DNA from: Vulcanimicrobiota bacterium
GTDB taxonomy: Bacteria > Vulcanimicrobiota > Vulcanimicrobiia > Vulcanimicrobiales > Vulcanimicrobiaceae
Direction of reading: 5' to 3'
Length of the DNA stretch: 64,000 nucleotides
Assembly: GCA_963812155.1 (NCBI GenBank)
Contig: CAWETW010000001.1
Coordinates: 704,001 to 768,000 of the forward strand
This document shows, piece after piece, positions 54,847-64,000 of the stretch (positions within the stretch are counted from its first letter, which is position 1; each line of letters starts with the position of its first letter). Position numbers and translations under genes: made by a program. The notes beneath the pieces are model-generated. The model made no database searches and was not told the DNA's origin. It worked only from the letters and a program-made list of their open reading frames with translations.

Positions 54847-55852
54847 TCAGAGCGACTCGGGAGGATCGACGGCGACGCCGACGGGAGACCCGCCTGACGT
54901 TGTTACGTTGCCAACATGCGTGCAGGCCTGCCCGTTACCGCCGCCCGCCGGGTACTTGAATTCCTTTACAACGCCGAGATTCGCCTCGGCCACGAATACG
55001 CGGGTCTCTTTGCGATTGAGATCCATGCCGACGGGACGCCCCGCAACGGTGCATTTCCCTGACGGGGTCCCAAATGAGGGCGGCGCGTACGTGAGTACGC
55101 TTCCGAGTTGGTCGTCGATCAGAACGACGTGCTCACCACCCACGGATCGCACGCCACCGGGAAAACCAAATACCGCGCCGGTGTTCGTGAATGACGTACA
55201 GACGCCGGCGACGCACTTACCCACCCACAGCCCGGGAGTGCCATCACTGTAGTAGAGGGTACCATCTTTTTGGATCGTCAAAGAGTAAATCGGTTGAGCG
55301 TTCGCGTTCTGATAGTTCGCGACCAACGCACCAGACGATTTTTTCCACACCGAGATCGACCCAGATGAGCAGAAGTGTGCTAAAAGGTTCGAAGCAATGA
55401 CGTATCCATCGTCGGAGACCGTGACGTCACCAGGCACTTCGTCACCGCATTTCGCGTCGACGTAGGTCTTGAACGGGCTCGTGCCGCCCCGATGATACGC
55501 CTCGACGTTGGGCGACGGCGGTCCCTTGGTCGCGTAAAGGTTGCCTGATGAGACCATCAGACCTCCCGCGCTATTGAATCCTGTCAGAATCCCACATGGC
55601 GCCTGACCGGCAAGATTACCGGCAAAAATGTTCACCGTACCATCGGCTTGATCGGAGACATAGACCAGTAGTCCCGTCGCCGGACACGTGTTGAACCCCA
55701 CGCCGTGATAGCCGGTGCGAAAAATAATTCCCTCGCGTGCGGCTCTGGGCCGCGAACGGCACTGGCGCTTGTGTCGGGCCGCTGGAACAACCCGCCCCGA
55801 AAGCTACCGCCGCTGTGGCAAACGCGATCTGGATCGCCTTGAGAGAACGCAT
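54847..55852 (-). CDS. Secreted lipoprotein, beta-propeller (frameshift near 55700)
   Basis: RBS aaggag; MRSLK...FGAGC in ORF 55616..55888 joined to LVYVSDQ...PVGVAVDP in ORF 54847..55701. Confidence 0.65.
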
Positions 55853-56113
55853 CGCGAGTCTCCTTCCGAAGCGCGTCGGCGGCATCATTTCTCAAAACGC
55901 AAACTGCGAACCTTGTTTTATGACGGAGCGAAACGGATACGCAGCGCTGAGCATAGATCTGCCGTCATAAAAAGGCCGCAGATCGCGCGCCTTATCTTCG
56001 CACAACGAAGCGCGGCCTAGGCTCGTTCCACGAGCGGGGCTTAGTTCCATCGCGGCGCTACGGCTCGGGCAGCGGCTCAGCTGGCAGTCAATTCGCAATG
56101 CGTTTCCGTTTAT

Positions 56114-57076
56114 TTATCTCTCTTCGTGACTGAGCGCCATACCTTGAGAGTAGTCCAATCCGGATTCGATCTTCACCCGAAATTCGCCCAGAGGATAGGG
56201 GCTGATGTAGACGTTATGGTCGGCGTAATCGGAGTAATAGATGTTTCGTTGGTTTCCACCAAGAACGATTTGCGTAGCGCAACAGCCGGTGTTCACGACT
56301 TGGGACGGATGGTTCTTTCCAGGCGGATACACGTCGACGGTCCCGTTGCCGCTCTCGACGATGATAATGTTTCCGGAGCGATCGATCTGCAAGCCTTGCG
56401 GCGACGAGACGTGCATACCTAAGATCCGGCCGTTCGTCGAGTGCGGAGCAAACTCTTCGATGCTATCTACCGACCGGCCGCGATAGGCTACATACAGATT
56501 CGATGCCTGGTCGAAGTTTATACCGTCAGCTTCGTGACCCGGGGTCTTTATCGTAACATCCGGCGTCGTTTGCTGCCGCGGATATTCGGTGACGGTCCCG
56601 TTGCGGTTCGCAGCGTACACCCTGCCCGAATGATCGGTTACGACGTACAACGGACTGGCCGTGTCGGTGTAGGTAATCCAAGGATGTATCGTGCCCGGCC
56701 GATACGCCGTTATCGTAGTAGTGTTCGCGACGTACAGACCGCCTTTCGCATCCGCAAAGAGCCCGTATGCACCAGCAACACCGTCGGTAATTGCTCCGAC
56801 AGGTTTGGCATCTTTCTCTCGGAAGATTGCGACTTGGTTGCCGCCGGCAACATAGACGAGCGCTCCTGTTGCGTTTTTCGCGTCCAGCCAACCGCGCGGC
56901 TTTGCCCCGCGACTGGGACGCTCTAGCAGAGTGGGCGATGGCCTCGGAACGACGCTTGAACTGAGTAGCGACGATTGAGAGTCGGATGAGCCTATCGGTG
57001 TCGAGACGGTCGAAGTGCAAGCGGTCGATGCAAGCATCCCGGCTCCCATCGCAAGCAAAGCGAGTATTCTGCGCAT
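56114..57076 (-). CDS. Secreted lipoprotein, NHL-like beta-propeller
   Basis: RBS ggagg; STAC lipobox-like; GLFADAKGGLYVAN, GINFDQASNLYVA, PQGLQIDRSGN. Confidence 0.72.
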   Translation of the reverse strand: MRRILALLAMGAGMLASTACTSTVSTPIGSSDSQSSLLSSSVVPRPSPTLLERPSRGAKPRGWLDAKNATGALVYVAGGNQVAIFREKDAKPVGAITDGVAGAYGLFADAKGGLYVANTTTITAYRPGTIHPWITYTDTASPLYVVTDHSGRVYAANRNGTVTEYPRQQTTPDVTIKTPGHEADGINFDQASNLYVAYRGRSVDSIEEFAPHSTNGRILGMHVSSPQGLQIDRSGNIIIVESGNGTVDVYPPGKNHPSQVVNTGCCATQIVLGGNQRNIYYSDYADHNVYISPYPLGEFRVKIESGLDYSQGMALSHEER

Positions 57077-57214
57077 AAAATCCCCCTCCAATCGCAAGGA
57101 GCAGCCAAAAGCGCTTAGGCGTCTTGCAAGGCCGTTCCTACGATGGAACTCGGGGAATGTCACCGAACGTGTAGCTCGTGGTCTCGAACGCCGTTCACGC
57201 TTTATTTTTCTAAG

Positions 57215-57232
57215 GATCTAAGAATGAAGACT
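57215..57232 (+). repeat. 18-bp direct repeat, copy 1 (contains the start codon)
   Basis: gatctaagaatgaagact, identical at 58280-58297. Confidence 0.85.
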
Positions 57233-58279
57233 CTAAACACCTTTGTTGCTGCGTTACTGACCGCGGCGCTCTTGGCCGCATGCAGCGGTCGCGGCGTTTT
57301 GATGCCGACCGGTACATCGGCGATACCTTCGAATCGCCAGGCTGCCATCGCGACAAATAGCGGTGGCAGCACGGCATTGTATGTTTCAGGAAGCGGTGGC
57401 ACCGCGATCTTCGCAGCCGGCGGAGCTAAGTACCTTCGAAAGATTAGACCCAAGAGTGGTGCGGTAGCGACGGATCGCCAAGGCCATCTCTATGTTGCCG
57501 GCGAGACAGCGGCCGCGGTAGATGTCTATGAAAATCGCGGAGCTAAGCTCGCCTGGACGGTTCATGCGAAGCCCTATTATCCACGCCTGCTCGTGCTTGA
57601 TGACTCGGGCGATCTCTACTTACACTGCGGAGATCGTAACCTGTGCGAATATGGTCCGCGCAACAAGGGACTCGTTCGGCAATTTCGTGGATACGGTACT
57701 CTATTTGCGCTAGACACCGGAGGCAATCTCTACCTTGCAACAGGATTTAACTCCGTTGCCGTTTATGCACCGGGAAGTACCTCGCCCGAGCGGACTATCA
57801 CAAGCGGCATCGCAGGCCCCGAGGCGCTCGCCTTGGACTTACAAGGGAACCTCTACGTCGCAAATGCATATGTCGGTTCACAACCATCCCAGAACGTCAC
57901 AGTGTACGCTCCTGGTGGAAGTTCACCAATACGGACAATTACTGCCGGCCTTACGATACCGTACGCTATGACTACGGATAGCGCGGGAAATCTCTACGTA
58001 CTAAACTCGTGCGTGAATCGCGGTGGCTGTACAAACGATCAAGATAGTGTTGCTGTGTATAGTCCCGGTACCAATACGCCTCTGCATGTCGTTAGCCAGG
58101 GTCTCGACTTTCCCGTAACACTTGCTGTCGACGGGTCAAGCAATCTCTACGTTGCAAATAATGGCAATTACCCAACCGACCGTGGCAGCGTTACCGTGTA
58201 TGGCTCCGGAAGCTATTCACTCATTCGCACGGTTACGCATGGCATCGAATATCCAGCTTTCCTCGCGCTCGGCTCCTAA
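57224..58279 (+). CDS. NHL-repeat lipoprotein
   Basis: Lipobox LAAC; repeats P.ALA.D..GNLYVAN...VTVYAPG..SP.RTIT.G. Confidence 0.8.
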   Translation: MKTLNTFVAALLTAALLAACSGRGVLMPTGTSAIPSNRQAAIATNSGGSTALYVSGSGGTAIFAAGGAKYLRKIRPKSGAVATDRQGHLYVAGETAAAVDVYENRGAKLAWTVHAKPYYPRLLVLDDSGDLYLHCGDRNLCEYGPRNKGLVRQFRGYGTLFALDTGGNLYLATGFNSVAVYAPGSTSPERTITSGIAGPEALALDLQGNLYVANAYVGSQPSQNVTVYAPGGSSPIRTITAGLTIPYAMTTDSAGNLYVLNSCVNRGGCTNDQDSVAVYSPGTNTPLHVVSQGLDFPVTLAVDGSSNLYVANNGNYPTDRGSVTVYGSGSYSLIRTVTHGIEYPAFLALGS

Positions 58280-58297
58280 GATCTAAGAATGAAGACT
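58280..58297 (+). repeat. 18-bp direct repeat, copy 2 (directly after the stop codon)
   Basis: gatctaagaatgaagact. Confidence 0.85.
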
Positions 58298-58442
58298 TAC
58301 TTCCTATGAAGCGCCAGTTCATCTTAGAGCCCGAATGGCGCTCGGTTCCATCGCGGCGCCAAGCTTGCGCTGCCTCCGAGCCACGGCCCCCGGGCAGTCC
58401 AGACGGACTTAGGCGAATCACACTCGGAGGCTTGGCAGCGGC

Positions 58443-58476
58443 TGTCGAACGTCCTGGCACGTTATCTTCTTCGGAG
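58443..58476 (+). repeat. 34-bp leader repeat, copy 1
   Basis: tgtcgaacgtcctggcacgttatcttcttcggag; 30/34 identical to 59486-59519. Confidence 0.85.
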
Positions 58477-58484
58477 GCCAACAA

Positions 58485-59456
58485 TTGACGACTCTATTTC
58501 GCCTCGTGGCAGCGTCACTTAGTGCGGCGCTCTTGGCCGCGTGCGGAAACCTAGCTTTCACATCGCCCCCGTTCAGTGGGCTGCCGTCGCATCGTGAGGC
58601 TCCAAAGTCGACGGGATTGCGGGCGAGTCGTTCTTGGATGGATTTCCGAGCCCAAAGTGGCGATCTGTTGTACGTGGCGGATCAAGCTTACGCCGTAGTC
58701 TATGTCTACTCGTATCCGCACGCCAGGTTGGTCGGAGAGCTTACTGGGTTTGCCGATCCAACAGGCGCGTGCGTTGACGCAAAAGGCGACGTCTTTATTG
58801 CCAACTACAATGCCTCAGACATCATTGAGTACGCACACGGGGGCACGAAGCCGAAGGCAGTCCTGAGCGACTCAGGGCATCCGTACGGCTGCTCTGTAAA
58901 TGGACTGAATGGGGATCTTGCAGTCAGTAATTGGACACAGAAAGGTTCGCAATCTGGCGAAATCGCCGTATACACGGCTGCAAAGGGAAAGCCGAAGCTT
59001 TTAGCCGACCCGAATTTCAATTACGTGCTCTTTGATAGTTACGACAAGTTGGGAAATCTATTCGTGGATTCAATCTCCCATGATGGTGTGTTTTTGTACT
59101 CAGAGCTTCCTAAAGGCTCATCGAAGTTCAAAGATATTTCCCTCGACAAGCACGTAAACTATCCCGGCGGAGTGCAATGGGATGGTATCCATATGGCGAT
59201 TGAAAACGTTGGTCCATCTGAGAACGACATTTATAGGTCAACGGGAGGCAAAGTAATCGGAACCACGCATCTTGACGGATCGTGCGACGCCTTGGATTTT
59301 TTCATCGAAGGTGGCATTACGATTGTTTCAGACCCAAGTTGTAACAAGATTCGCCTATATCACTATCCGAGCGGAGGACACGCGATAACAACAATTACGC
59401 TGCCTTCGCAAAGCGCTCCAATTGGCGTCGTAGTTAGTCCCACCGCCACTCCCTAG
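58485..59456 (+). CDS. Secreted lipoprotein, beta-propeller
   Basis: RBS ggagg, TTG start; lipobox LAAC; SWMD..AQSGDLLYV, GACVDAKGDVFI, PYGCSV...GDLAV, YPGGVQWDG. Confidence 0.75.
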   Translation: MTTLFRLVAASLSAALLAACGNLAFTSPPFSGLPSHREAPKSTGLRASRSWMDFRAQSGDLLYVADQAYAVVYVYSYPHARLVGELTGFADPTGACVDAKGDVFIANYNASDIIEYAHGGTKPKAVLSDSGHPYGCSVNGLNGDLAVSNWTQKGSQSGEIAVYTAAKGKPKLLADPNFNYVLFDSYDKLGNLFVDSISHDGVFLYSELPKGSSKFKDISLDKHVNYPGGVQWDGIHMAIENVGPSENDIYRSTGGKVIGTTHLDGSCDALDFFIEGGITIVSDPSCNKIRLYHYPSGGHAITTITLPSQSAPIGVVVSPTATP

Positions 59457-59485
59457 TCGCTAGCACTCGGCGCCCGTCCGGTGAA

Positions 59486-59519
59486 TGTCGAACGCCCTGG
59501 CACGTTATTTTCTCCGGGG
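59486..59519 (+). repeat. 34-bp leader repeat, copy 2
   Basis: tgtcgaacgccctggcacgttattttctccgggg. Confidence 0.85.
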
Positions 59520-59895
59520 ATATGAGAATGAGCGGCTGGAAGATGATTGACGCCGGGCGGCCCGACGAGGTAAATAGCGTTCTGGCTACTCGTTGCCGCA
59601 CCGGAACTGAGTCTGCGGCGTAGAACACGGCCAGGCGGCGTACGAAAGCGCGAAAGTCCAACTTGCGAGTCAGCAATGGAAACGATAGCAATGACTATGC
59701 AGCGGTAAAAAGCAAAGTCATAGCCGAGATATTGGAACGCCATTAAGCGAATGCTACGCCAGGCAATGCATGGTGACACCCTCTGCATCGAGGCGCATGG
59801 GCTAGGCGCCGAGGCGTAGCGCTCGCAATTGCAATGGCGCTACGATTGCGGCGGCCCCCACCGTTGCGGAGGGTCTCCATTCGCCGGTTCAGCCC

Positions 59896-59924
59896 TTGAC
59901 GCTGGACCCCGTGCGTGCTATGGT
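59896..59924 (+). promoter_or_regulatory. Sigma70-type promoter of the Met operon
   Basis: TTGACG (59896-59901), 17-bp spacer with TG at the extended -10 position, TATGGT (59919-59924); ATG 59932 lies at the expected +1. Confidence 0.7.
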
Positions 59925-59931
59925 TTCGGCC

Positions 59932-60018
59932 ATGTCCCGGAAGCCAGTTTGTATGTTTCGTCCCATGTGCCGAATGCAGATGCATTTGGTGAGGGTCGGC
60001 ATGGAGCACGCTACGTAG
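59932..60018 (+). CDS. Met/Cys-rich leader peptide (putative attenuator peptide) MSRKPVCMFRPMCRMQMHLVRVGMEHAT
   Basis: 28 codons, 6 Met and 2 Cys, between promoter and terminator upstream of hom-metX-metB. Confidence 0.72.
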   Translation: MSRKPVCMFRPMCRMQMHLVRVGMEHAT

Positions 60019-60043
60019 TTTCCAAAATCGTTTCTTGCTTTAC

Positions 60044-60081
60044 GCGCCCCTCGTCGAATGACGTAAGGGGCGTTTTTATTT
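60044..60081 (+). terminator. Intrinsic terminator (attenuator) in the Met operon leader
   Basis: cgcccct-cgtc-gaat-gacg-ta-aggggcg then tttttattt. Confidence 0.82.
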
Positions 60082-60115
60082 CGTCGCTTTCCCATCTCAC
60101 CAGGAGGCTCGAAAC

Positions 60116-61246
60116 ATGAACGTGACCGTCGGAATCGGATTGCTCGGTTGCGGCACCGTCGGCTCGGAGGTCGCCGATCGTTTGGAGCGCGAGCGCGACG
60201 CGATCGAGCGCGCCGCCGGCGTGCGCTACGAACTCTGCGGCGTCGCGATTCGCGATGCGGCCAAAGACCGCCCGGATTCACTCGAGCGCCGCTTATTCAC
60301 GCGCGACGCGGTCGCGCTGGTCGACGATGCACGGGTGGATCTGGTCGTCGAACTCATCGGCGGCTCGACCGAGGCGGCCGGTTTGGTCGAGCGGGCGCTG
60401 GATCGCGGACGGCACGTCGTCACGGCAAACAAAGACGTCATCGGCACGCAAGGGCCGCGCTTGCGCGCGCTGGCGGCAACGCGCGCGGTCGCATTACGTT
60501 TCGATGCGGCGGTGGCCGGAGCAATTCCGCTGCTGCGGACGATCGGCGAAGCCCTAGCGGGCGACGAAGTGCGAGCGGTTGCAGGCATTCTCAACGGCAC
60601 GTGCGGTTTTATCCTCGAGGCGATGGAACGCGGTGCGTCGTTCGAAGAGGCGCTGGCGTGCGCGCGCGATTTAGGCTACGCGGAATCGGACGCGTCGAAC
60701 GACGTCGAAGGCACCGACGCCGCGCACAAACTCGCGGCGATCGCGCAACTTGCGTTCGGCGTCGCCGTCATTTCGCCGCGCATTCGGCGGCGCGGCATTC
60801 TCGGTGTTTCGGCACGCGATATCGAAGCGGCCGCAGCGAGCGGCATGCGGTTGCGTCTGCTCGCCGCGACGGCGCGCACGGACCGCGGCATCGCGGCGGA
60901 AGTTGCGGTCGCCCTCGTTCCGCGCGAGCACGAGTTTGCGCGCACGGAAGGTGCCGAGAACGTCGCGCACGTCGTCGCGCGCGATGCGGGGCGGCTCTCG
61001 CTGCGCGGCAGCGGCGCGGGTGGGCGCGCCACCGCATCGGCCGTGCTGGGCGACGTGGTCGCGGTGCTGCGCGAACTCGGCGAACGCCGCGATTTCTCGG
61101 CACGGCAACGCTTCCCGGCGCTCGAGCCCGCGCTCGACGTCGCGCCGTTCTTCGAACGGCACCGGCGGCTCGACGCGTTGCCCGATTTTCCGGTGTGGGA
61201 CGACGAGGCGATCGCCGGCGCGCTGCGGCCGGAAGCGTGCGCGTGA
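60116..61246 (+). CDS. hom: Homoserine dehydrogenase
   Basis: GLLGCGTVG, VVELIGG, HVVTANK, GILNGT, LGYAESD...DVEG.DAAHK, GAGGRATASAV; RBS aggagg. Confidence 0.92.
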   Translation: MNVTVGIGLLGCGTVGSEVADRLERERDAIERAAGVRYELCGVAIRDAAKDRPDSLERRLFTRDAVALVDDARVDLVVELIGGSTEAAGLVERALDRGRHVVTANKDVIGTQGPRLRALAATRAVALRFDAAVAGAIPLLRTIGEALAGDEVRAVAGILNGTCGFILEAMERGASFEEALACARDLGYAESDASNDVEGTDAAHKLAAIAQLAFGVAVISPRIRRRGILGVSARDIEAAAASGMRLRLLAATARTDRGIAAEVAVALVPREHEFARTEGAENVAHVVARDAGRLSLRGSGAGGRATASAVLGDVVAVLRELGERRDFSARQRFPALEPALDVAPFFERHRRLDALPDFPVWDDEAIAGALRPEACA

Positions 61247-62244
61247 TGCGCGAGGAAACGATCGGCATCGGCCCGTTCACGCTCGACAGCGGCGACGTTC
61301 TTGCCGCGGTCGAACAGCGCGTGACGATTTACGGCACGCCGAACGCCGAACGTTCCAACCTCGTGCTCGTCACGCACGCGCTCACGGGTTCGAGCCGCGC
61401 CGCAGAGTGGTGGCCGGGCATCGTGGGCGACGGCGGCCTCTTCGACCCGCGGCACTGGTGCGTCATCGGCATCAACGCGCTGGGAAGTTGCTACGGTTCG
61501 ACCGGCCCTGCGTCGCCGGCGCCCGGCGATCTTCCGTACGGCGCTGCGTTTCCGCGCGCCGGCGTGGGCGACTTCGTGCGCGCGCAAATGCGGGCGCTCG
61601 ATCGCCTCGGATTCGAGGATCTTGCGTTCGTTATCGGTGGTTCGCTCGGCGGAATGCAGGCATTGCAGTGGGCGCTCGCGGCGCCGCAACGCGTTCGCCA
61701 TGCCATCATCGTCGGAGCGCACGACGGTTTGCATGCGATGAGCCTCGCACTCTGCGCGCTGCAGCGCGAGGCGCTGTTGCTCGACCCCGCCGGCGGGTTG
61801 CGGCTGGCGCGCAAGATTGCGATGCTGACGTACAAAAGCGCCCCGCTGCTCGACGCGCGCCACGGCCGGCGCGCGGATCGACGGCAGTCCGATCGCTTCG
61901 ATGTCGAGGGCTATCTCGACGTGCAAGCCGATCGGCTGGCGGCGCGGATGGACGCTCGAAGTTACGACGTGCTCACGCAGGCGATGATGACGTTCGACGT
62001 ACGCGACGTCCACACGAACGGCTTCACGGGCCGCCGGCCGGCGCTGACGTTCGTCGGCATCGGGTCGGATTGGCTCTTTCCCGCGGACGAAGTGCGCGAA
62101 GCGGCGGAACGATTTGCCGCGCGCGGGTTCGACGCACGCTACCTGTATCTCGAGTCTCAGCACGGCCACGATGCATTCTTGGCCGACGCGGCGGCACTAC
62201 GCGCACTGCTCGAACCGGTCATCGCGGAGTGCGGCGTATGCTGA
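61246..62244 (+). CDS. metX: Homoserine O-acetyltransferase (MetX family)
   Basis: HALTGS, WW..IVG, NALGSCYGSTGP, GGSLGGMQAL, SDWLFP, HGHDAFL; TGATG coupling to hom. Confidence 0.88.
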   Translation: MREETIGIGPFTLDSGDVLAAVEQRVTIYGTPNAERSNLVLVTHALTGSSRAAEWWPGIVGDGGLFDPRHWCVIGINALGSCYGSTGPASPAPGDLPYGAAFPRAGVGDFVRAQMRALDRLGFEDLAFVIGGSLGGMQALQWALAAPQRVRHAIIVGAHDGLHAMSLALCALQREALLLDPAGGLRLARKIAMLTYKSAPLLDARHGRRADRRQSDRFDVEGYLDVQADRLAARMDARSYDVLTQAMMTFDVRDVHTNGFTGRRPALTFVGIGSDWLFPADEVREAAERFAARGFDARYLYLESQHGHDAFLADAAALRALLEPVIAECGVC

Positions 62245-63416
62245 CCGCTGCCAAGCCTGCGACGGCGCGCCGGGGATTTTCTACGCGCGCGATTTGGAGC
62301 GGCCAGGAACCGTGCGCGGCAACCGGCGCGACGATCATCCCCGTCTATCAAACGGCGACGTTCACGCTTCCGGAAGTCGGCGTTTCCAAGGGATTCGACT
62401 ACTCGCGTTCGGGAAATCCGACGCGCTTAGCGCTGGAACGGCAGATTACGTCGCTGGAAGAAGGCGCGTGCGCGAGCGCGTTTGGTTCGGGAATGGCGGC
62501 AGTTGCGGGCGCGTTGTCGCTGTTGCGTTGCGGCGACCATCTCCTCGCGGCGCGCGACATCTACGGTGGAACGCACCGGCTCTTCACGCAAGTGCTGCCC
62601 GCGTACGGGATCGACGTCACGTTCGTCGACACGACCGACGTTGACGCAACGTGGGCGCGAGCGGGGCCGAACACGCGGATGCTGTGGCTGGAAACGCCGA
62701 GCAATCCGGCACTGAGCCTCTCCGACATTGCGGCGTTCGCGCGCACGAAACCACGCCGCGTGCTGGTTGCGGTCGACAACACGTTTGCGTCGCCGTTTCT
62801 GCAGCGTCCGCTGGTGCTCGGCGCCGATCTCGTGGTGCATTCGACGACGAAATACATCTGCGGGCACAGCGACGTTGTCGGCGGCGCTGTGGTTGCAGCC
62901 GACGATGCGGTCGGCGAGCGGATTGCGTTCCATCAAAATGCGGTCGGCGCCGTGCCCGGCCCGTGGGACGCGTACCTCACGCTGCGCGGGGTAAAAACGC
63001 TAGCGCTGCGGATGCTCGTGCACTCGCGCAACGCGCAGCGCATCGCGGAGTTTCTTTCCGCGCGCAACGACGTCGCGGAGGTTCGGTATCCCGGATTGCC
63101 GGAGCACCCGCAGCACGATCTCGCGCGGCGGCAGATGGAGGGCTTCGGCGGCATCGTGACGTTTCGTCCCGCCGGCGGAACGCGGCGCGCGCGCGCCGTC
63201 GCACAAGCGACGTCGGTATTTACGCTCGCCGTGTCGCTCGGCGGCGTCGAGTCGCTGGTGTGCAGCCCGGCAGTGATGACGCACGCATCGCTCACGCCGC
63301 ACGAGCGCGAGCAACTCGGCATTACCGAGGATTTGCTGCGGCTCTCAGTGGGCATCGAAGACTCCGACGATCTCATCGCGGATTTGTCGGCGGCGCTCGA
63401 CGCGGCCGATTGCTAG
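62238..63416 (+). CDS. metB: PLP-dependent cystathionine gamma-synthase/lyase
   Basis: YSRSGNPT, FGSGMAA, YGGT, ETPSNP, VDNTF, HSTTKYICGHSD, SLGGVESL, LRLSVGIE; metB versus metC assigned from context only. Confidence 0.8.
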   Translation: MLTAAKPATARRGFSTRAIWSGQEPCAATGATIIPVYQTATFTLPEVGVSKGFDYSRSGNPTRLALERQITSLEEGACASAFGSGMAAVAGALSLLRCGDHLLAARDIYGGTHRLFTQVLPAYGIDVTFVDTTDVDATWARAGPNTRMLWLETPSNPALSLSDIAAFARTKPRRVLVAVDNTFASPFLQRPLVLGADLVVHSTTKYICGHSDVVGGAVVAADDAVGERIAFHQNAVGAVPGPWDAYLTLRGVKTLALRMLVHSRNAQRIAEFLSARNDVAEVRYPGLPEHPQHDLARRQMEGFGGIVTFRPAGGTRRARAVAQATSVFTLAVSLGGVESLVCSPAVMTHASLTPHEREQLGITEDLLRLSVGIEDSDDLIADLSAALDAADC

Positions 63417-63542: not shown

Positions 63543-64000
63543 TTGCACATCTATAAGAAGCGTTCTTTCGCTTGGGCGCCGGCGCTCGGCCCGGCGTTCC
63601 TTCTTCTCGCAGCCTGTTCCAATTCCGGATCCGCGCAGTTGCCGGCAACCGGTAACGCGGGCGGCATGCCGTCGCAATTCGTTTCGATGGACGATCGCGC
63701 GCCGGCCATGCGGCCGAATGCGACCGGGAAACTGGTTTTCGTCGATCCAATGGTGGTCGCGGCGCAGGTGTACGTCGCTTCGTACGACGCGTCGGGCTCG
63801 ACGCCGGTGGACGACTACCATGCCAACGACTCGAAGAACAACGGTCACTTCTGCCAGATTAAATCGGTCGGTGAGGGCATCAACGCCCTCGGCGTCGATG
63901 CATCCGACGAACTGTGGGTGCCGCAAGGTCTCGATCTCAAATCCGGCAAGGCCGACATCGTGTCGTACGCTCCGAACTGCGGCGCCGAAGGTACCACGCT
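63543..64000 (+). CDS. Secreted lipoprotein (3'-truncated by window)
   Basis: RBS gaggag, TTG start; LHIYKKRSFAWAPALGPAFLLLAAC; later QVYVAS and ALGVDASDELWVP; open to window end. Confidence 0.65.
   Translation, partial: MHIYKKRSFAWAPALGPAFLLLAACSNSGSAQLPATGNAGGMPSQFVSMDDRAPAMRPNATGKLVFVDPMVVAAQVYVASYDASGSTPVDDYHANDSKNNGHFCQIKSVGEGINALGVDASDELWVPQGLDLKSGKADIVSYAPNCGAEGTT

Follow-up and report, generated by a model that had tools for sequence, protein, structure and literature searches.

Transcription attenuation by translation of a leader peptide is a textbook principle. In Escherichia coli the trpL, hisL, leuL, pheL and thrL leaders combine a short ORF carrying codons of the pathway's amino acid, an antiterminator that overlaps the 3' part of this ORF and an intrinsic terminator, and the locus described here has the same parts. 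The usual RNA control of met genes is exerted by SAM riboswitches and methionine T-boxes, with which this locus shares its target genes and a terminator/antiterminator output, and from which it differs in that the sensor is a reading frame. Methionine is awkward for attenuators read by a ribosome, as it has one codon, shared with initiation. Among the literature searched, a methionine version of the principle has been predicted only, in Deinococcus and Streptomyces; neither a tested Met-codon attenuator nor anything on leaders in Eremiobacterota was found in that search, which ran mostly outside subscription papers (the broad attenuator surveys among them). The accessible portions of PMC2965389 and PMC1183508 mention no Met leader, and those of PMC1262725 report that no conserved structure was observed upstream of actinobacterial met operons.

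In Deinococcus deserti, short ORFs precede the genes for methionine-tRNA ligase (Deide_09379) and cysteine-tRNA ligase (Deide_16409), and the accessible part of that paper shows the same features of a leaderless start (mapped there) and of a set of leaders within one lineage, one of the 14 containing Met (PMC4007540). This Met leader has 15 codons, serves a synthetase gene and is predicted, with no terminator analysis described in that part of the paper (PMC4007540), whereas the present leaders precede genes for biosynthesis and sulfur uptake and have covarying helices. In Streptomyces lividans, metL, upstream of metNIQ and annotated as methionine-dependent, is also leaderless with Met and Cys codons; in the text available to us it is a predicted leader of 29 codons with the Met and Cys codons at its end and no typical intrinsic terminator (PMC8079986). 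Finally, the leaderless poly-Cys sORFs of mycobacteria (Ms5788A class), predicted earlier (PMC1262725, accessible part), have been shown by experiment to stall on Cys codons (bioRxiv 10.1101/834739, accessible part). They share with our locus a leaderless sORF and proposed stalling on codons for sulfur amino acids, but according to those texts they sense Cys and act on translation by freeing the Shine-Dalgarno (SD) sequence, while here there are Met codons and a terminator/antiterminator. The locus would work like trpL and differ from the E. coli attenuators in its specificity (Met plus Cys control codons), its probably leaderless start with no SD sequence, its weak protector and an additional hairpin over the SD of the first gene.

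The leader upstream of hom-metX-metB

The window analysed here is a stretch of 64,000 nucleotides from a Vulcanimicrobiota bacterium (GCA_963812155.1, contig CAWETW010000001.1); the closest named records are Ca. Eremiobacterota MAGs, with Hom proteins 94% and 86% identical. A first-pass annotation had proposed a methionine-sensing attenuator here, made of a promoter, a 28-codon ORF and a strong intrinsic terminator before the hom ribosome-binding site, and all three parts are present (Table 1). The promoter, with a TG extension in addition to the hexamers claimed, is the sole promoter-like site in 59300-60400 (1 found against 0.5 expected from shuffles). The ORF has Met at codons 1, 8, 12, 15, 17 and 24 and Cys at codons 7 and 13, as described; five internal Met in 27 codons, against a background of 1.44%, has P = 4e-5 (uncorrected, calculated for this ORF alone), and the control region holds more Met than Cys codons (4 against 2). 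The annotation had missed that the ATG lies 7 nt past the -10 box, with no space for an SD sequence. This spacing, found in 55 of 58 hom leaders from relatives that keep the promoter layout, suggests a leaderless mRNA, with transcription probably starting at or next to the ATG.

Table 1. Features of the leader and its operon, in positions of the window
Feature	Position	Strand	Remarks
Sigma-70-type promoter	59896..59924	+	-35 TTGACG 59896-59901, 17-nt spacer, TG-extended -10 TATGGT 59919-59924
Leader ORF, 28 codons	59932..60018	+	probably leaderless, judging by spacing
Control region, codons 7-17 (Cys7, Met8, Met12, Cys13, Met15, Met17)	59950..59982	+	as predicted by folding model
1:2 hairpin, protector or pause candidate	59969..59990	+	not dominant family-wide
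Segment 2, 5' strand of antiterminator	59983..59998	+	conserved core 59987-59995; within ORF
Segment 3, common to antiterminator and terminator	60045..60060	+	pairing, covariation
Intrinsic terminator	60045..60081	+	hairpin 60045-60072, U tract 60073-60081
RBS hairpin	60079..60114	+	core 60086-60108; lower stem 60079-60083 : 60110-60114
hom, homoserine dehydrogenase	60116..61246	+	NF004976, 356.5 bits, cut-off 205
metX-like homoserine O-acyltransferase	61243..62244	+	NF001209, E 1e-86, 291 bits, below cut-off 331
metB-like cystathionine gamma-synthase	62238..63416	+	NF005871, E 6.5e-149, 496 bits, below cut-off 513

The terminator hairpin has a predicted energy of -17.4 kcal/mol and is followed by 8 T among 9 bases; a simple terminator scan found none, probably because the hairpin is bulged. 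The antiterminator claimed between segments 2 and 3 has 15 of its 16 positions paired (3 G-U), and in folding a transcript that ends at 60060 adopts it, while the full transcript adopts the 1:2 hairpin plus the terminator. Both of the 1:2 pairings proposed exist in this copy, 59969-59977 with 59982-59990 (9/9 pairs with 2 G-U, hairpin energy -12.2) and 59963-59973 with 59996-60004 (a duplex of 7 pairs, -10.7).

The order hom-metX-metB is backed by NCBIfam, with hom above its cut-off and the other two genes slightly below theirs as best matches, and the three genes are coupled by overlaps (the metX-like start overlaps the hom stop). Predicted lipoproteins of a repeat-rich type flank the operon (54847-59456 and 63543-64000 of the window; no NCBIfam match for 58485-59456), and the gene upstream of the promoter varies even among the closest relatives. 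In this genome (84% complete) no further leader of the family was found, covariance model R1 giving one strong match, and the promoter scans gave no second leader judged to have the attenuator layout. At this completeness of 84%, the queries used detected no ilvB, ilvC, trpD, lysA, cysH, cysI or ssuA; MetJ was likewise not found, nor was metE by Pfam. The genome does contain metH, and it has a metY-like gene and a further metB-like one, both lacking leaders.

Known RNA regulators were searched for with Rfam, which gave no riboswitch match at the locus or in 14 related loci. At E values up to 10, region 59300-60400 has four weak unrelated matches, far below gathering score, and none to SAM families; the SAM riboswitch RF00162 was found in 0 of 41 relatives and 0 of the 14 loci, and the T-box RF00230 in 0 of 21 genomes and not at the locus, the controls being detected in both genome searches.

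Conservation of the leader and the predicted effect of a stalled ribosome

A Hom search of 41 relatives gave 30 loci, 29 of them readable upstream. A promoter and a Met/Cys-rich leader precede hom in 17 of the 29, among them every one of the 12 same-genus loci; two (L025, L026) have Thr/Ile-rich leaders and ten, one of them from an unpublished genome (L018 in G022) on which no other result depends, have none, in at least two cases because hom sits inside an operon. In four loci of family f2 (L019, L021-L023) the promoter upstream of hom is directly followed by a GC-rich hairpin and a U run with no leader ORF, which is possibly a remnant or some other control. A 21-base motif 3' of the terminator was matched in 135 of 301 genomes of the family (0 in the control), a tally that, like the one for the RBS hairpin below, includes up to six unpublished genomes. 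Starting from 30 motif loci, 60 of about 110 further matches and the loci from the Hom search and named records, we assembled 108 distinct loci, which were selected through the downstream motif and by hand for genus spread, not blindly; 105 have promoter and leader (101 by script, 4 by eye) and 3 do not. The first gene behind the 101 leaders is hom in 58 (21 genus labels), an ssuA-type sulfonate transporter gene in 34 (3 genus labels), metB in 4 and cysH in 4, one leader being at a contig end. Two loci stand apart: L033 (DASRXM010000058.1), titled Candidatus Babeliales, has a hom 67% identical with the same leader and RBS element, which could be a mislabel, misbinning or transfer, and in L111 (G102) the hom frame extends over 816 codons, apparently into metY, by fusion or sequence error.

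Both helices covary, which is what the annotation had suggested checking. In an alignment of 60 sequences, double changes occur in 10 of 12 terminator pairs, and many terminators of the family have interrupted U tracts. For the antiterminator, 82% of cells are paired against 40-64% in slid controls and 6 of 9 pairs show double changes (equalled in 30 of 500 shuffles); its pair types were equalled in 98 of 500, and two of five measures were not clearly above shuffles, so that this covariation is modest, the sequences being kin and not independent. When the ORF was paired with its own terminator arm the energy was -25.2 kcal/mol, against -20.5 kcal/mol with arms swapped between 30 genus-class groups (0/500). 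The region 5' of the terminator has a mean column identity of 44-46%, leader lengths range from 19 to 29 codons, and all three stop codons are used: what is conserved in the leader is its codons rather than its sequence or fold.

The effect of a waiting ribosome was modelled by masking its footprint codon by codon and computing the fraction of segment 3 paired upstream. In this equilibrium model, with a truncated transcript and an assumed footprint, the antiterminator probability in this copy is 0.61-0.63 at codons 7-8, 0.85-0.86 at codons 12-13, 0.71-0.86 at codon 15, 0.51-0.72 at codon 17 (depending on footprint) and 0.2 at codon 24. Codons up to about 16-17 should thus be able to act, Met12, Cys13 and Met15 best, and Met8 and Cys7 more weakly; the claim that the internal Met codons are the sensors holds in the model for Met8, Met12 and Met15, is borderline for Met17 and fails for Met24. 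A clear fall in antiterminator probability is seen in 88 of the 101 leaders and none in 13; in 86 of the 88 the probability is about 0.8 and drops at codon 15-20. In these 88 leaders Met codons number 251 before the fall and 34 after it, and Cys codons 200 and 15, the two together 451 and 49; with one leader per genus and gene class, such an excess was reached in 0 of 10000 permutations. As a control of the model, the control codons of the five E. coli leaders (5' ends set from assumed lengths) fall in the permissive zone.

The trp-type 1:2/2:3/3:4 layout that had been proposed is present in this copy, but its 1:2 protector is not dominant in the family. In super-attenuation, as presented in the accessible part of PMC1183508, such a protector causes termination of the untranslated leader. 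Here, with no ribosome, the predicted antiterminator is at or above 0.5 in 79 of the 101 leaders (median 0.74; 0.62 in this copy), against 0.06-0.59 in E. coli, so that the untranslated state would mostly be read-through and a protector of this kind is not predicted; the value of 0.59 for thrL means that the model may understate protectors. Such a default appears doubtful as a special adaptation to methionine, since two Thr/Ile-type leaders scored 0.97 and 0.38 in the model. Even a ribosome that has reached the stop codon leaves the antiterminator at or above 0.5 in 57 of the 101 leaders (0.27 in this copy), and termination would then depend on timing, as the ribosome crosses segment 2.

With pathway codons enriched in frame in a short upstream ORF, an intrinsic terminator (predicted fold plus covariation) between leader and first gene, a mutually exclusive antiterminator with modest compensatory change, and control codons at positions where a ribosome that stalls is predicted to leave segment 2 free, the locus is very probably a ribosome-mediated transcription attenuator that senses Met-tRNA with a Cys component. 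Transcription would begin at the leader ATG or beside it, giving a leaderless 5' end on which a ribosome would load. When charged tRNA-Met and tRNA-Cys are ample, the ribosome would reach segment 2 (from about codon 17) and cover it, leaving segment 3 to pair with segment 4 and polymerase to stop in the U tract. If Met-tRNA, or Cys-tRNA, is scarce, the ribosome would wait at codons 7-15, segment 2 would capture segment 3, and polymerase would proceed into hom-metX-metB. The ribosome's effect would come from masking segment 2 as it moves through, and the protector would contribute little.

What the leaders probably read

Relative to 2011 coding-like ORFs from this genome, the leaders are enriched 9.3-fold in Met, 9.4-fold in Cys and 2.1-fold in Ser, all others reaching at most 1.2-fold. 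ATG occurs 322 times in frame in the 101 leaders, and 24 and 6 times in the other frames; both Cys codons are in use. Met enrichment is conserved in relatives, as expected from the first reading of the locus: 62 of 63 leaders of hom/metB type have at least two internal Met codons. The sensor was nevertheless misjudged in part, as the control region is Met-rich but Cys is equally enriched and absent from only 1 of the 63, and we regard the sensor as Met plus Cys.

An attenuator that senses cysteine alone, with the Met codons as by-products, would be in keeping with this near-universal presence of Cys and with its peak right before the predicted fall (0.45 at -3), and mycobacteria have proven examples of leaderless ORFs that sense Cys (bioRxiv 10.1101/834739, accessible part). 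It is very unlikely, however, given that only 30 ATG triplets are out of frame and that Cys content tracks the operon, with 2.6 per leader in operons with metY (35 loci), 1.3 with metB (6) and 1.5 where metX comes first (13), while Met stays at about 3.1 whichever the type. The four cysH leaders average 4.25 Cys and 0.75 Met; in the four metB leaders Met averages 3.0 and Cys 0.75. In genomes G109 and G018 the metB leader is Met-rich with zero Cys in codons 2-17, and a cysH leader 1.4 kb away has 5 Cys and no internal Met.

Across the phylum, 72 of 151 genomes contain a match to the covariance model built from the leader: 59 of the 71 genomes of this family, with few and weak matches in other families. 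Sixty of the weaker matches were retrieved, and they supplied 48 of the 50 downstream proteins that we scanned; these are metY, metB, cysH, cysI, hom, thrC, ask, ilvB, ilvC, ilvA, aroA, aroF-type, aroH, trpD and lysA products, two having no match. In codons 2-17, leaders of met genes (9) average 2.8 Met and 1.8 Cys, those of cys/sulfonate genes (8, two before unmatched genes) 3.8 Cys, those of ilv genes (15) 3.6 Leu, 3.1 Val, 1.4 Ile and 0.1 Met, and those of aromatic genes (12) 3.2 Tyr, 1.3 Phe, 1.1 Trp and 0.1 Met. Tyr/Phe/Trp leaders precede aro genes and trpD, Lys leaders lysA, and Thr leaders thrC, ask and some hom genes; four hom leaders, excluded from the means by the promoter filter, have 7-9 Thr each. 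That the control codons swap with the pathway on one scaffold is the strongest argument for the Met codons as sensors. Seven of the 60 weaker matches have no credible leader, one more is ambiguous, and in one before metB (L245) the leader, as called, is not Met-rich. Outside the family, an ilvB leader was found in family f2 (L218) and a Met/Cys leader before hom-metX in f3 (L028); weak R1 matches in f3 (L226, L241) and in other families (L224, L225, L239, L240) are plain terminators with no credible leader and were rejected.

The paralogous leaderless attenuators (in L186-L245; Thr, Ile/Leu/Val, Tyr/Phe/Trp, Trp and Lys types) have similar terminator/antiterminator sequences, and a single genome can have up to 9 model matches. 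Three leaders before hom or the aspartate kinase gene (L025 in G018, L026 in G016, L213 in G073) mix Thr, Ile and Met codons, a composition that would suit multivalent sensing of homoserine-derived products. Genus g34 (L187/L192/L206 in G186 and G054; L198/L204 in G199) shows two attenuators in tandem: on one strand, about 2.6 kb separate a Met/Cys leader that precedes metY from a Thr-run leader that precedes hom. In genus g32, Cys-rich leaders (L191, L195) precede a protein of 262 aa, unmatched in NCBIfam at 1e-30, which we take to resemble a membrane sulfite exporter.

These data also bear on two readings in which tRNA charging plays no part. TnaC is a nascent peptide that halts its ribosome when a small molecule is sensed, and the recurrence of Met/Cys pairs in many leaders might point to a similar arrest or to a function of the peptide itself, such as metal binding. 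Yet beyond Met and Cys no residue is enriched more than 2.1-fold, spacing and length vary, and a stall induced by the product would presumably turn the operon on when product is abundant, which is the wrong sign; such a peptide seems extremely unlikely. An undescribed metabolite riboswitch, for SAM for instance, might instead drive the terminator with the ORF incidental. The lack of SAM-I in the 41 relatives means that an unknown SAM sensor could exist, and the RBS hairpin described below has a near-invariant, aptamer-like core; this element, however, lies 3' of the terminator and so cannot steer it, the upstream region is poorly conserved in its columns and kept as codons with a frame bias, and the paralogues retain the helices and switch the codons. 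We find this explanation just as hard to credit.

A hairpin over the hom ribosome-binding site

The attenuator is followed by a second element that the first-pass annotation had missed, a hairpin whose near-invariant core consists of an anti-SD, an 11-nt loop and the SD. Within this family 92 of 206 genomes have it, against 0 of 94 in the other families of the phylum, and it was found only before hom, metB, ssuA and cysH; many sulfur-gene leaders detected by the covariance model lack it. Its consensus fold has 5 invariant pairs and zero covariation, as a result of this invariance. Before hom and metB it is extended by a variable lower stem, whose pairing is backed in met-type loci only (-5.5 with own partners against -4.8 swapped, 6/1000), the same comparison giving no support for ssuA and cysH loci. 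In three loci from three genera (L034 in G286:C1, L084 in G143:C323 and L120 in G125:C34) the promoter abuts the hairpin and hom is intact, the leader ORF and the terminator being missing; G286 retains a full leader before metB on another contig (L138).

A hairpin over the SD could mean that control is mainly translational, by opening and closing of the hom ribosome-binding site in the manner of the mycobacterial poly-Cys sORFs, and that the terminator is secondary. Segment 4 can indeed pair with the pyrimidine stretch before the SD in 85% of cells, but covariation of this 4:5 pairing is weak, whereas that of the terminator is strong. Release of the SD by segment 4 in the read-through transcript was considered and rejected, since the pairing is possible and predicted access is not gained: the SD is predicted to be poorly accessible either way, and the antiterminated state brings no increase (0.06 vs 0.10, 58 hom leaders). 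The poly-Cys mode, in which the control codons themselves pair with the SD further down and a terminator is lacking, does not fit here either, a terminator being present and the SD pairing locally, with predicted access not raised by stalling, and we give translational control of this kind almost no credence. Transcription attenuation remains the preferred reading, to which the hairpin might add a second control, on translation, for sulfur genes. Such a two-sensor unit, in which the 23-nt hairpin could stand alone and would act either as a very small riboswitch of the SAM type or as an RNA-binding protein's operator, is conceivable but on present evidence rather unlikely.

About 100 natural variants with the full terminator/antiterminator anatomy, Met-rich, Cys-rich or mixed, are thus at hand, and their sister leaders for Thr, branched-chain, aromatic amino acids and Lys use a similar RNA scaffold. 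The 190-nt cassette makes it possible to ask whether internal AUG codons can serve as a sensor of methionine, and whether a read-through default would spare the operon from shutdown when initiation fails for shortage of methionine. For a mostly uncultured soil lineage in which neither SAM-I riboswitches nor T-boxes were found in the genomes searched, these leaders would offer a first regulatory picture of amino-acid synthesis.
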